A program made the translations under genes and the position numbers. This document shows, in pieces, positions 2,795 through 34,046 of a DNA stretch of 40,233 nucleotides. Under the pieces are notes generated by a model. The model was not told where the DNA came from, ran no database searches, and saw only the letters and a program-made list of their open reading frames with translations. The stretch lies in sequence record PZ445540.1; one strand, given 5' to 3'. The DNA comes from a phage. Positions within the stretch are counted from its first letter, which is position 1, and the number at the start of each line of letters is the position of its first letter.

Positions 2795-3484
2795 ATGGGG
2801 GCCGTGATGCCTGAAATCGTAAAAACGCTGTCTTTCGACGAGACAGAAATCAAGTTCACCGGTGACGGGAAGCAGGGGATTTTCGAAGGCTATGCCTCAG
2901 TTTTCAATAACACCGATTCCGATGGCGACATCATTCTGCCCGGGGCGTTTAAGAACGCACTGGCGAACCAGACCCGCAAAGTGGCGATGTTTTTCAACCA
3001 CAAGACGTGGGAGCTGCCGGTTGGTAAATGGGACAGCCTGGCCGAAGACGAAAAAGGCCTGTATGTGCGCGGTCAACTTACCCCAGGGCACAGCGGCGCC
3101 GCCGACCTGAAAGCTGCAATGCAGCACGGTACGGTTGAGGGTATGTCGGTTGGCTTTTCCGTTGCGAAAGACGATTACACCATCATTCCAACAGGCCGCA
3201 TTTTTAAGAATATCCAGGCTCTGCGCGAAATCAGCGTCTGCACTTTCCCCGCCAACGAACAGGCTGGCATCGCAGCCATGAAAAGTGTCGATGGCATTGA
3301 AACGATTCGTGATGTGGAGAACTGGCTGAGGGATTCAGTCGGGCTCACCAAATCACAGGCAGTTGGGTTAATAGCCCGGTTTAAGTCAGCGATTCGGAGC
3401 GAGTCCGAGGGCGACGGAAACGAAGCACAAATCAACGCTCTGCTTCAGAGCATTAAATCTTTCCCTTCCAATTTAGGTAATTAA
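2795..3484 (+). CDS. prohead maturation protease (HK97-type, S78-like)
   Basis: 229 aa; N-terminal 'GYASVFNNTDSDGDIILPGAF' matches the conserved protease core of HK97 prohead proteases; sits between portal and capsid genes. Confidence 0.82.
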   Translation: MGAVMPEIVKTLSFDETEIKFTGDGKQGIFEGYASVFNNTDSDGDIILPGAFKNALANQTRKVAMFFNHKTWELPVGKWDSLAEDEKGLYVRGQLTPGHSGAADLKAAMQHGTVEGMSVGFSVAKDDYTIIPTGRIFKNIQALREISVCTFPANEQAGIAAMKSVDGIETIRDVENWLRDSVGLTKSQAVGLIARFKSAIRSESEGDGNEAQINALLQSIKSFPSNLGN

Positions 3485-3486
3485 TT

Positions 3487-4644
3487 ATGTCTGAACTCGC
3501 TCTCATTCAAAAAGCAATCGAAGAATCCCAGCAGAAAATGACCCAGCTGTTCGATGCGCAGAAAGCTGAAATCGAAAGCACGGGCCAGGTTTCCAAACAG
3601 CTGCAGTCCGACCTGGCAAAAGTACAGGAAGAACTGTCCAAATCCGGTACCCGCCTCTTCGATCTGGAACAAAAACTGGCTTCCGGTGCTGAAAATCCGG
3701 GTGAGAAGAAATCCTTCTCTGAACGTGCCGCTGAAGAGCTCATCAAGTCATGGGACGGCAAACAGGGCACCTTCGACGCGAAGACGTTTAACAAGTCTCT
3801 CGGCAGTGACGCTGATTCTGCTGGCTCACTGATCCAGCCGATGCAGATCCCTGGCATCATCATGCCGGGCCTGCGCCGTCTGACTATTCGTGACCTGCTG
3901 GCTCAGGGCCGAATTTCCAGCAACGCTCTCGAATACGTGCGTGAAGAGGTGTTTACCAATAACGCCGACGTAGTGGCAGAGAAGGCGCTTAAGCCAGAGT
4001 CAGATATCACCTTCAGCAAACAGACCGCGAACGTAAAGACCATCGCGCACTGGGTGCAGGCATCACGTCAGGTGATGGACGATGCGCCAATGCTGCAGTC
4101 CTACGTTAACAACCGCCTCATGTACGGTCTGGCACTGAAGGAAGAAGGCCAGCTGCTGAACGGCGACGGCACCGGGGATAACCTGGAAGGTCTGAACAAA
4201 GTGGCAACCGCCTACGACACCTCGCTGAATGCAACCGGCGACACCCGCGCCGACATTATCGCTCACGCCATTTATCAGGTGACAGAGTCTGAGTTTAGCG
4301 CTTCCGGTATCGTCCTGAACCCGCGCGACTGGCACAACATTGCGCTGCTGAAAGACAACGAAGGCCGCTATATCTTCGGTGGTCCTCAGGCGTTTACCAG
4401 CAACATCATGTGGGGCCTGCCGGTGGTACCGACCAAGGCACAGGCAGCGGGTACCTTCACTGTGGGCGGTTTCGACATGGCATCTCAGGTCTGGGATCGC
4501 ATGGATGCCACCGTAGAAGTCAGCCGCGAAGATCGCGACAACTTCGTGAAAAACATGCTGACCATCCTGTGTGAAGAACGCCTTGCGCTGGCGCACTATC
4601 GCCCGACGGCAATCATCAAGGGCACTTTCTCTTCTGGCTCATGA
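3487..4644 (+). CDS. major capsid protein (HK97 fold) with N-terminal delta/scaffold domain
   Basis: 385 aa; coiled-coil-rich N-terminal ~100 aa (delta domain) followed by a capsid-like body; strong RBS; intrinsic terminator-like hairpin immediately downstream. Confidence 0.85.
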   Translation: MSELALIQKAIEESQQKMTQLFDAQKAEIESTGQVSKQLQSDLAKVQEELSKSGTRLFDLEQKLASGAENPGEKKSFSERAAEELIKSWDGKQGTFDAKTFNKSLGSDADSAGSLIQPMQIPGIIMPGLRRLTIRDLLAQGRISSNALEYVREEVFTNNADVVAEKALKPESDITFSKQTANVKTIAHWVQASRQVMDDAPMLQSYVNNRLMYGLALKEEGQLLNGDGTGDNLEGLNKVATAYDTSLNATGDTRADIIAHAIYQVTESEFSASGIVLNPRDWHNIALLKDNEGRYIFGGPQAFTSNIMWGLPVVPTKAQAAGTFTVGGFDMASQVWDRMDATVEVSREDRDNFVKNMLTILCEERLALAHYRPTAIIKGTFSSGS

Positions 4645-32187: not shown

Positions 32188-33003
32188 ATGGAACTTGAAG
32201 CATCACTAAAACACTTTAGCCCTCAGGGTATGCACATCAGCGACGACGTGAAAGGAACCTCTCCGGACCGCCTTACAGGAACAGATGTAATGGCGGCGAT
32301 TGGCACCACCAGCAGCCGTGCGCGCTTCGGCCTGGCGGCGTTCTTCGGTAAAGCGGGAATCAGCAAAACCGATGAACAGCTCGCAGTTCAGGCGCTGGCG
32401 CGATATGCGATGGATGTCGCACCGAAGAATGTTCGCAAAGCAGCTGGTGGCCAGTTCGGATGGTGTATGCAGATGCTGGCGCAATTTGCCTTTGCTGATT
32501 ATTCCCGTTCGGCGGCTACCAGCGTGACGTGTCACAGCTGCAGCGGTACCGGACGAACAACCCGCGAGCAGATTACCCGCAAGGTTTCGTACCCATGGGG
32601 TAAAGCTCCATACTGGGCCTGCCGCTCTCGTGCTGTTCGACCGTCTGACTGGGAGCAGTGGACGGAGGTAACAGAGGTTGTACCGGCGGTCTGTGATGCT
32701 TGCGATGGCATGGGAACGATCAGCGCCCGTTGTCGTTGCGGCGGTAAAGGCGAGGTTCTAGACCGCAAAGCGACTAAAGACCGCGGCGCACCGGTTTTCA
32801 AAACGTGTGAACGTTGCTCTGGTAATGGCTTCTCTGCTATCTCCTCGGCGACGGTACACCGTGCCATTCTGAAGCGTCTCCCGGACCTTCATCAGTCCTC
32901 ATGGTCACGCAACTGGAAACCCTTCTATGAAATGCTGGTGGACACTTTGCGTCAGGGGGAGCGTCATGCTGCTTTAGAATTTGAGAAGGCAACAACTTAT
33001 TGA
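32188..33003 (+). CDS. Cys-rich protein with four DnaJ-type CxxCxGxG repeats (possible late-gene antiterminator)
   Basis: 271 aa; CSGTGR, CDGMGT, CGGKGE, CSGNGF repeats; sits where lambdoid Q genes sit, upstream of the late leader and lysis genes. Confidence 0.45.
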   Translation: MELEASLKHFSPQGMHISDDVKGTSPDRLTGTDVMAAIGTTSSRARFGLAAFFGKAGISKTDEQLAVQALARYAMDVAPKNVRKAAGGQFGWCMQMLAQFAFADYSRSAATSVTCHSCSGTGRTTREQITRKVSYPWGKAPYWACRSRAVRPSDWEQWTEVTEVVPAVCDACDGMGTISARCRCGGKGEVLDRKATKDRGAPVFKTCERCSGNGFSAISSATVHRAILKRLPDLHQSSWSRNWKPFYEMLVDTLRQGERHAALEFEKATTY

Positions 33004-33117
33004 TGTGATCGGAACAAATAGCGACACTTTTTTGCACGTTAGTGTTGACTTTGCATAAAACTGTCCTGTATGCTTCTAATCGTGGAAGATACCGTCCAAA
33101 CGAAATTAATCATTGAA

Positions 33118-33145
33118 ACCCTGCCTCGGCGGGGTTTTTGCTTTT
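33118..33145 (+). terminator. intrinsic terminator 1 in the late leader region
   Basis: ccctgcctcggcgggg (one G-U wobble) followed by TTTTTGCTTTTC. Confidence 0.5.
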
Positions 33146-33150
33146 CTAAG

Positions 33151-33178
33151 GCTGCCAATGGGTGGCCTTTTTTGTTTC
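33151..33178 (+). terminator. terminator-like hairpin 2
   Basis: gctgccaatgggtggc (stem includes wobble pairs) followed by CTTTTTTGTTT. Confidence 0.35.
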
Positions 33179-33390
33179 CCCTCGTTCTGAGAGGACTCAT
33201 GGCGATGATGTATTGACCGCTACAATGGATTAGTCGTAACTTATTATTGTGGTGAATCCTTTCTAAGCGAAAGGGCGTTCCAGTCAACTGCTATCTGCAG
33301 GTATGCGCGCGGCTTTGCTGACTGTGGTTGAGTCACCGGGAGGCACCCGGCACCATGACAATAACAATATAAGTTTCAAATTCCTTGAGA

Positions 33391-33418
33391 GCCTGCTATA
33401 AAAAGCAGGCCTTTTTTT
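33391..33418 (+). terminator. intrinsic terminator 3
   Basis: gcctgctataaaaagcaggc followed by CTTTTTTT. Confidence 0.65.
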
Positions 33419-33575
33419 ATGGTTTTGTAATCTGCTGCTACGCTTTGAGTTGTGAGATGCGCCTACCTCTCTGGGGGTTCTCCTGAACCTATAGTGAATC
33501 AGCCCGATACTGTCTCACTCAGGTCAGTTAGCAAGACTCACGACTACCTACCTTACTTACTAATAGTCACTCATT

Positions 33576-33603
33576 AGCCCGCCTTCAAAAGCGGGCTTTT
33601 TTT
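33576..33603 (+). terminator. intrinsic terminator 4 (upstream of the holin)
   Basis: agcccgccttcaaaagcgggct followed by TTTTTTT. Confidence 0.65.
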
Positions 33604-33650
33604 ATTCCCCTCATCACTGAGAGGATTCACGGCAATAAGAGGGGGACTAG

Positions 33651-34046
33651 ATGTCCGATCCTGTTTCTGGCACGACAGTAGCGGCTGGTGGTCTGATGGG
33701 GGCCAGCGTGTTCGGCCTGGCAACCGGCATAGATTACGGTGTGGTGTTTGGCGCATTCGCTGGTGCGGTGTTCTACGTCGCTACGGCGGTTAATATCAGC
33801 CGCCTTAAGCTGGTGGGCTACTTCATCACCTCATTCATCTTCGGCGTTATCGGCGCGCCACTGCTCGGCTCTTACTTCTCCAAATGGACGGGGTATAGCG
33901 ACAGGCCACTTGATGCGCTGGGCGCGGTAATCGTAGCCGCTATTGCTATTAAGCTGCTGACGTTCGTCAACAGTCAGGATTTGGGTAGCCTGTTTGGAAT
34001 TCTCTCGCGTTTACGTGGTGGAGGGGCCAGCAATGGTAACAAGTGA
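33651..34046 (+). CDS. holin
   Basis: 131 aa with three hydrophobic TM-like segments; first gene of the lysis cassette; RBS AGAGGGGG. Confidence 0.55.
   Translation: MSDPVSGTTVAAGGLMGASVFGLATGIDYGVVFGAFAGAVFYVATAVNISRLKLVGYFITSFIFGVIGAPLLGSYFSKWTGYSDRPLDALGAVIVAAIAIKLLTFVNSQDLGSLFGILSRLRGGGASNGNK

Follow-up and report, generated by a model that had tools for sequence, protein, structure and literature searches.

In the lambda 6S arrangement, the transcript from the late promoter is stopped at the terminator tR'. Short late-promoter transcripts can also act as small RNAs (sRNAs), an example of which is StxS (PMC7547250). Here we analyzed a phage DNA of 40,233 nt (sequence record PZ445540.1; the whole stretch is referred to below as the window), in which 647 bp separate the end of a Q gene (33003) from the start of a holin gene (33651). 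The window is 100% identical to Escherichia phage SaltyDalty (PP925825.1) over this leader and over the 25 kb tested. We consider it probable that the leader, at 33004-33650, is a mosaic of separable modules, which comprise a late promoter with terminators t1 and t2, the sRNA gene STnc100 with terminator t3, a second sRNA-like gene (unit 2) with terminator t4, and a holin leader motif, and that the two sRNA units form a cassette that sits inside a duplicated holin leader, of which the first copy is probably a scar. The architecture is of a known kind, and the novelty is modest: it lies in the duplication of the leader around the cassette, in how strongly that leader is conserved throughout a widespread family of holins, and in the linked unit 2.

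Like the lambda pR'-6S-tR' region and the StxS leader of Shiga toxin (Stx) phages, the locus consists of a Q gene, a promoter-like site directly after it, terminators within ~100 nt, and lysis genes. It differs in that its Q protein is of another type, which is 271 amino acids (aa) long, zinc-finger-bearing and Fels-1-like, and in that its terminators are tandem; a sequence or Rfam match to 6S or StxS did not come up, and no search aimed at one was made. The Q gene (32188-33003, on the plus strand, as are all features of the window located below) lies directly upstream of the leader, and its product matches the Pfam family PF03589 (Antiterm, E = 2.2e-54) and carries DnaJ-like CxxCxGxG zinc-finger motifs; an additional match to the Pfam entry DnaJ_CXXCXGXG was sub-threshold. 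The gene is annotated as "anti-termination protein Q-like" in PP925825.1, and its homologue in Fels-1 is annotated as Q. Downstream of the leader, the lysis cassette begins with a holin of 131 aa (33651-34046), which matches PF16931 (Phage_holin_8, E = 2.4e-38), and continues with a PF05449 holin and then a GH108 endolysin. Judged from this gene order, the 647-bp stretch is located where the late leader of a lambdoid-type temperate phage is classically found. Its G+C content is 44-47.5%, compared with 55-60% in the flanking genes. The initial annotation had described the stretch as a non-coding late leader, a description that holds up, as it lies between a PF03589 Q gene and a holin gene and the small coding sequences (CDS) annotated within it are disrupted or unconserved in relatives.

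A sigma-70 scan of 32800-33800 reported a single promoter-like site, at 33045-33074, which is composed of TTGACT, an 18-nt spacer and TATGCT (9 of 12 matches) and occupies the position of pR'. The surrounding module of ~110 bp (33004-33115) is 80-90% identical behind the matching Q type in Fels-1, Fraca, several Klebsiella phages and AsXd-1, and we regard 33045-33074 as the putative late promoter. The -10 hexamer TATGCT is abutted by TCTAAT (33075-33080), which could alternatively be a sigma-dependent pause element, with its position relative to the start being uncertain. An overlapping promoter-like arrangement, in which TTGCAT and TCTAAT are separated by an 18-nt spacer, occurs at 33051-33080 and is shifted by 6 bp from the called late promoter.

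Scanning 32800-33800 for the terminator consensus returned plus-strand hairpins at 33115-33138, 33148-33169, 33391-33410 and 33576-33597 and a nested call within the first, which amounts to five calls compared with 1.2 ± 1.3 in shuffled sequences; the minus strand of the same region gave no calls. The four plus-strand terminators that had been proposed from inspection are thus borne out, and we found that they do not constitute one leader series. Terminators t1 (33115-33146, a 10-bp stem followed by a T-run) and t2 (33148-33175, a 9-bp stem followed by TTTTTTG) form a tandem pair of the tR' type, whereas t3 belongs to STnc100 and t4 to unit 2. Relative to the predicted start at ~33081, t1 lies ~35-65 nt and t2 ~67-95 nt downstream, such that predicted transcripts from the late promoter would measure ~60-65 nt when ended at t1 and ~95 nt when ended at t2. 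Based on lambda and Stx-phage biology, the late promoter would be constitutive, and transcription without Q would end at t1 or t2 to yield 6S-like RNAs of ~60-95 nt, which would be expected in the lysogen. With Q, as in lambdoid phages generally, polymerase would pass t1 through t4 into the holin, endolysin and spanin genes. The earlier suggestion that short terminated, 6S-like transcripts arise ahead of the holin is plausible; t3 and t4 are assigned to sRNA genes that have conserved promoter-like elements of their own.

The presence of serial terminators between Q and the lysis genes has a counterpart in 933W, the late region of which is annotated to contain Q, pR', several terminators, a tRNA moron with its own promoter, stx2, STnc100/AsxR and the holin. 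In both phages the leader between Q and the lysis genes is a cargo slot for promoter-RNA-terminator units, hence the serial terminators. The cargo of the window differs from that of 933W in that it consists of two sRNA genes only (430 bp), contains neither toxin nor tRNA, and is bracketed by a duplicated holin leader; a tRNA scan of the window found none. The architecture of the window also matches the order Q-PasD-...-holin of enteropathogenic and enterohaemorrhagic Escherichia coli (EPEC and EHEC) prophages (10.64898/2026.05.13.724894). PasD is an Hfq-dependent sRNA encoded between Q and the lysis genes (PMC8550237). Descent of PasD and STnc100 from one ancestor has been proposed in a preprint, which also reports that the commonest neighbours of STnc100 are Fels-1 genes (10.64898/2026.05.13.724894). 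Copies of STnc100 are transcribed in EHEC, and one has been verified by northern blot (PMC5331693).

The first cargo gene of the window is a member of the STnc100 family (Rfam RF02076) by its covariance-model threshold: a cmscan match at 33218-33421 scored 59.3 bits, compared with a gathering score of 47, and covered the full model (positions 1-206 of 206). The RNA itself is predicted to extend over ~33249-33418 and includes t3 (33391-33418), which in this model is the terminator of STnc100. The predicted 173-nt RNA adopts an Rfam-like multi-stem fold (z = -2.3). Phylogenetic footprinting of 51 distinct STnc100 upstream regions revealed TTGAC at -39 (13 regions) and TAnnnT at -15 (23 regions) relative to GTGAATCC, with divergent spacers. 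In the window, these elements correspond to a predicted promoter at 33213-33242, which has a -35 hexamer TTGACC (33213-33218), an 18-nt spacer and a -10 hexamer TAACTT (33237-33242), with a predicted start at ~33249, and they are also kept in HK639 and Fraca. STnc100 occupies the slot between Q and the lysis genes in Fels-1, HK639, the prophage of E. coli MB06232 and 933W as well, in the last of which it lies just after stx2B. The window copy resembles the STnc100 and PasD sRNAs of EPEC and EHEC prophages in its position between Q and holin, in having its own terminator, and in the conserved blocks GGUGAAUCC and CACCGGGAGGCACCCGGCACCA. It is, however, a divergent variant, as its 59 bits compare with 208 in 933W and 138 in Fels-1 and its first hairpin is CCUUUC/GAAAGG rather than CCCCC/GGGG, and, unlike the known STnc100/PasD systems, it has a second sRNA-like gene in tight linkage.

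More than one STnc100-related unit can occur in a single locus. In Fels-1 (L207), which has the matching Q type upstream, a full STnc100 at 2592-2805 (138 bits) is followed by a truncated STnc100-like unit at 3006-3128 (59 bits), directly after which lies an apparent tRNA 3' end. Several viral contigs contain two exact STnc100 cores that are 267-922 bp apart.

We read unit 2, at 33452-33603, as an sRNA-like gene of ~150 nt that is unnamed and has no Rfam family, a prediction drawn from alignments of 18 and 37 distinct homologues. It consists of a variable 5' section, a conserved GGUUCUCCUGAACC hairpin, GUGAAUCAGCC, a C/U-rich unpaired stretch (CUCAC..CCUACCUUAC..AAUAGUCA) and t4 (33576-33603). 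Together with its promoter-like part, unit 2 makes up the second conserved stretch of the leader (33422-33603). The promoter-like part contains an extended -10-like element, TGcTACGCT (33436-33444), which is invariant in 17 of the 18 homologues and reads TGcTATGTT in a plasmid copy (L290). Covariation in unit 2 is nearly absent, with one or two pairs changed on both sides, and the unit often shows indels of 1, 4 and 8 nt. When 32900-33750 was searched permissively with cmscan against Rfam 15, unit 2 and the 31-nt motif had only sub-threshold, terminator-driven matches. When unit 2 was compared with the region between Q and holin of 933W in search of a PasA/PasC counterpart, no similarity to that region was found.

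Unit 2 is widespread, and its core is matched by at least 120 viral contigs and by three Enterobacter species representatives. Nearly always it is accompanied by STnc100, which lies directly upstream in 63 of 64 complete distinct unit 2 contexts; the converse is not true, as just 6 of 87 sampled STnc100 copies have unit 2. Unit 2 occurs ahead of at least three holin types. Each of the two genes has its own predicted promoter, and both could therefore be made in the lysogen independently of Q. From what is known of lambdoid phages, STnc100 and unit 2 would be expressed from these promoters in the lysogen and would act with Hfq on host or phage mRNAs.

The pair is also found outside phage late regions. 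On a 94.7-kb E. coli plasmid (L290, NZ_CP081764.1, 2479-2858), unit 2 faces a copy of STnc100 (72 bits) in convergent, tail-to-tail orientation between permease and oxidoreductase genes and with no obvious phage late region, such that the linkage persists in another orientation and context. We considered whether unit 2 could be a second STnc100 copy, as in Fels-1, and rejected this identity, as there was no covariance-model match and only the short strings GUGAAUC and CTGCTGCTAC are common to both. The latter is found at 33432-33441 in the promoter region of unit 2 and, in the STnc100 of Fels-1 (L207, ~2617-2630), directly 5' of GTGAATCC. In view of these shared strings, unit 2 and STnc100 may be of common origin. 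The terminators t3 (33390-33417) and t4 (33576-33603) are 79% identical over 28 nt, a likeness which suggests that the two sRNA units may derive from a duplicated terminator-bearing module.

The cassette is flanked by the two copies of the motif that had first drawn attention to the leader. The pattern CCCCTC-N3-9-TGAGAGGAYTCAYGGCRAT has two exact matches in the 40-kb window, at 33178-33206 and 33607-33636, and none in 100 shuffles, and a gapped local alignment of the two copies scored 41, compared with 18.8 ± 2.2 (maximum 28) in 300 dinucleotide shuffles, which confirms the duplication of the 31-bp motif. The repeat reaches back into the terminator tails, where it measures 43 nt (33164-33206 and 33594-33636) at a spacing of 430 bp. 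Copy 1, the distal copy and left direct repeat (33176-33206), comprises CCCCTC, a GTTCT loop and GAGAGGACTCATGGCGAT, with neither a Shine-Dalgarno (SD) sequence nor an open reading frame (ORF) after it. Copy 2 (33605-33650) is the leader of the holin gene and comprises UUCCCCUC, an AUCAC loop and UGAGAGGAUUCACGGCAAU, followed by the SD sequence GAGGGGG (33639-33645) and the AUG at 33651.

To place the motif, we collected loci encoding this holin, which provided 117 distinct 600-nt upstream regions. The motif is present in 114 of them, 41-47 nt before the ATG, and the lack of conservation in relatives that had been named as a refuting outcome is thus not observed. The general layout is a terminator, CCCCTC, a variable loop, GAGAGGAYTCAY and the SD sequence. 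In nearly all relatives the motif begins directly after an intrinsic terminator, which occupies the position of t2 and whose stem differs in sequence between loci. Across leaders, conservation is at least 90% in both arms (CCCCTC and GAGAGG), in the AYTCAY that comes after them and in the SD sequence GAGGGGG, and the arms are almost invariant while the loop varies in sequence and in length (~4 to 9 nt); the observation that the stem is conserved and the loop differs between the two copies thus extends to relatives.

The motif is also found well beyond the close relatives. A motif-first scan detected the element before holins that are 57-59% identical in protein to the window holin, where the stems of the terminators and the loop vary. 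In an unbiased collection built around one such divergent holin, the motif is present in 44 of 44 distinct leaders, among which the spacer to the SD sequence is variable both in length and in sequence. For the close set of holins, diversity is 0.23 at third codon positions versus 0.0006 at second positions. Because of this third-position diversity and the occurrence of the motif before holins of 57-59% identity, its conservation does not merely reflect recent descent. In 160 contigs of E. coli and Klebsiella phages (loci L007-L086 and L210-L289), the 131-aa holins share 98-100% protein identity, and, as judged from the codon positions, purifying selection on the holin is unusually strong for a lysis protein of a phage.

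Across viral contigs, 76 of the 77 distinct occurrences found by the motif-first scan either precede a holin start or another start that occupies the position of the holin, or mark the left end of the cassette, and the remaining one is elsewhere and chance-like. By this distribution, we conclude that the motif constitutes the conserved leader at the 5' end of the Phage_holin_8 gene and is not a general companion of strong terminators. The initial annotation had proposed a structured RNA or protein-binding element; what stands of this proposal is a small hairpin under strong sequence conservation, and what does not is its status as a general post-terminator element, since a single holin family has it as its leader. 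The result is a strongly conserved and apparently undescribed cis element ahead of a widespread holin family of Enterobacteriaceae phages, which could bear on lysis timing.

A hairpin in a comparable place is known from another holin gene. In 1989, Blasi and colleagues reportedly found that an upstream stem-loop of lambda S, 'sdi', tunes the translation starts of the holin. The window leader resembles sdi in being a small hairpin just upstream of the ribosome-binding site of a holin, a gene whose dosage sets lysis timing. It differs from sdi in that the holin belongs to an unrelated family, a dual-start motif is lacking, and conservation reaches beyond the stem. Of 29 variants, 26 have the motif hairpin (UCC.CUCA / UGAG.GGA, -6 to -8 kcal/mol) as their minimum-energy fold, and z averages -1.7. 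In an alternative fold, CCCCUC is paired with the SD sequence (GAGGGGG); this fold has the lowest energy for the common uninterrupted allele and not for copy 2, the two folds are energetically close, and no fold is unusually stable. The primary-sequence invariance of the leader, AYUCAY included, suggests that the leader is recognised sequence-specifically by some factor. Copy 2 would most likely be the working leader, which sets holin translation or mRNA stability. We also considered a conserved upstream mini-ORF after GAGAGGA, and rejected it, as an ATG is present in few alleles only and the frame is broken in the cassette allele.

We asked how the motif came to be present twice. An uninterrupted site with a single copy, in which t1, t2, the motif, the SD sequence and the holin follow one another, is found in mEp390 and in an ST131 prophage. 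In-silico deletion of 33207-33636, a 430-bp insertion unit that comprises the two-sRNA cassette and one repeat copy, renders the window collinear with mEp390 across t1, t2, motif and holin at 88-89% identity. Terminator t1 is located 5' of the repeat unit, and both t1 and t2 are kept in the uninterrupted mEp390 locus. Among the 117 distinct upstream regions, 73 are uninterrupted and 41 carry STnc100, 20 of which also carry the distal motif copy; a distal copy without the cassette was found in none of the 117. Copy 1 is absent or decayed in about half of the cassette loci, as counted both in the holin set (21 of 41) and among the unit 2 contexts (37 of 63).

The two copies are not alike enough to have arisen from one another recently. 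Their identity ranges from 72% (ungapped) to ~84%. Of 43 positions, copy 1 agrees with the commonest uninterrupted allele at 41 and copy 2 at 35. The copy 2 allele, with its ATCAC loop, is cassette-linked. Because copy 1 resembles the uninterrupted allele and copy 2 the cassette-linked allele, we conclude from these comparisons that the two copies are different alleles joined by recombination and not a fresh target-site duplication. The motif would be doubled since the cassette sits inside the holin leader, with an uninterrupted-type copy on its left and a cassette-linked copy on its right, and copy 1 would most likely be a recombination scar without a function of its own. A transposable element such as a miniature inverted-repeat transposable element (MITE) was considered and rejected, as the cassette does not end in terminal inverted repeats and is flanked by repeats that are long (31-43 nt) and imperfect.

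Phage morons in the sense of Hendrix and Juhala are self-contained units with their own promoter and terminator that are present or absent at one site. The cassette is likewise present or absent at one site among collinear relatives, and each of its units has a predicted promoter and terminator. In contrast to classic morons, it encodes RNAs rather than a protein and is flanked by imperfect 31-43-nt repeats that derive from the target leader. The combination of STnc100 and unit 2 occurs ahead of three different holin types, and its edges vary: HK639 has kept copy 2 and reduced copy 1 to a decayed 3' half, while Fraca has kept copy 1 and has a different holin, with copy 2 absent. On contig L296 (~4243-4266, minus strand), a cassette-type leader (ATCAC loop, through GAGGGGG) is joined to an unrelated membrane protein of 134 aa, which is ~30% identical to the holin, and the divergence starts a few bases upstream of the start codon. 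The junctions in Fraca, HK639 and L296 therefore mark the site just after t4 and the start codon as recurrent crossover points. The locus thus provides a filled-site versus uninterrupted-site example of sRNA genes that move between phages as a cassette, for which the holin leader is a likely crossover point.

Several observations weigh against our reading of the leader as a late leader with a two-sRNA cassette inside a duplicated holin leader. No Q-binding element or promoter-proximal sigma-dependent pause site was identified with confidence in the leader, and the promoters, start sites and terminator efficiencies are predictions for SaltyDalty. The -10 hexamer of STnc100, TAACTT, is weak and was missed by a simple consensus scan. 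Whole-leader folds are not unusually stable (z ~ -0.1 to -0.7), the motif hairpin is thermodynamically modest, and one variant (L256) does not fold into it. A covariance comparison in related phages, which had been proposed as a check, revealed strong sequence conservation, but changes in both arms occur only in L015 and in L256/257, which represent one or two lineages; as the gaps in the MAFFT leader alignment were not placed in the loop, covariation was judged by eye. The leader hairpin is thus plausible and weakly supported by covariation. In addition, AYUCAY is invariant and lies outside the hairpin, which a plain hairpin model does not explain. With respect to history, the two-copy state could have arisen by insertion into an uninterrupted leader, or the single-copy state by loss through recombination between the repeats, and the decayed copy 1 of HK639 may signify that the two-copy state is old rather than a recent scar.

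Three alternative readings were weighed. The one that survives best, which we nevertheless hold to be unlikely, is that the 5' domain of STnc100 pairs with the copy 2 leader in cis or in trans, with copy 1 possibly acting as a competing decoy in the late transcript. The target would be GAGAGGAUUCAC...AAUAA beside the holin ribosome-binding site. In the cis form, a long-range stem of ~20 bp would form in the Q-dependent late transcript, with the cassette looped out, and would provide a processing site or block the ribosome-binding site; in the trans form, STnc100 made in the lysogen would silence leaky holin mRNA. Positions 33244-33263 and 33619-33638 are indeed complementary over 20 nt (17 Watson-Crick pairs, 2 G-U pairs and 1 mismatch), and the complementarity ends 1 nt before the SD sequence. 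The reverse-complement 20-mer has a single match in the 40-kb window when up to 3 mismatches are allowed, with 0.00 expected from 100 shuffles, but this significance hinges on 5 nt upstream of the predicted sRNA start, and for the 15-mer that begins at the predicted start 1.1 chance matches are expected. The pairing helix is present in the minimum-energy and centroid folds of late-leader RNAs of 481 nt and 600 nt. In free STnc100, however, the 5' end is buried in the closing helix of the RNA itself, and a duplex-energy test was weak (p ~0.04), with other parts of the genome scoring better.

Comparison among relatives likewise gave a divided picture of this pairing. Most cassette-bearing loci retain its 12-bp core, GUGAAUCCUUUC with GAGAGGAUUCAC, and the paired stretch includes the invariant and otherwise unexplained AYUCAY. 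Yet the outer 5 bp vary without compensatory changes, other STnc100 variants beside this holin pair poorly (9-13 of 20), and the core is broken in most leaders, where the central position is C instead of U; linkage alone can account for the U variant being associated with the cassette. The cassette also precedes unrelated holins that have no such pairing site. If the pairing were true, the cassette would be an RNA-level safety catch or lysis timer instead of passive cargo, and a widespread prophage sRNA of unknown function would be tied to lysis control, which would be of interest for work on Stx-phage and prophage sRNAs. As a separate element of this unlikely reading, unit 2 would constitute a new sRNA family in tight linkage with STnc100.

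A second alternative, which we judge to be quite improbable, is that the motif is a repeated functional cis element, i.e., an RNA structure or protein site, that is needed after particular terminators, for example for antitermination or processing, and that both copies are required. Both copies do directly follow the T-run of a terminator, and the arms and 3' flank are conserved at the sequence level far above neighbouring bases, which suggests sequence-specific recognition. A requirement for both copies is nonetheless difficult to reconcile with the 73 of 117 distinct relatives that have a single copy, and with the cassette loci that lack copy 1 (21 of 41 and 37 of 63) or, as in HK639, hold only a decayed half of it. 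Furthermore, with 76 of 77 occurrences tied to holin-position starts or to the left edge of the cassette, the motif travels with the holin and not with any Q type or terminator sequence.

It is least likely, to the point of being very improbable, that the region is protein-coding, with the three small CDS annotated as hypothetical proteins in the GenBank record PP925825.1 (33070-33216, 33303-33401 and 33452-33577) being real and the terminators separating small-protein morons: close relatives retain ~22 codons of a 32-codon ORF that lies within STnc100 and ribosome footprints have been reported on some EHEC STnc100 copies (PMC5331693), but the first and third ORFs have frameshifts or stops in HK639, Fraca and other relatives, the small ORFs cross terminator hairpins, the middle ORF is not kept beyond close relatives, with the STnc100 of 933W and that of Fels-1 lacking an ATG at the corresponding site, and the frequent 1-, 4- and 8-nt indels in unit 2 count against coding. 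The three CDS are probably over-calls within a non-coding leader, and the annotation is tidied by reading these "hypothetical proteins" as a late leader with two sRNA genes.

Other cargo is present in the same slot in relatives of the window. The HK639 record annotates four terminators in the leader and leaves the sRNAs unannotated. In HK639 (L001, 2088-2240) and in an E. coli prophage (L006, 2411-2719), tRNA genes lie between Q and the cassette of STnc100 and unit 2.

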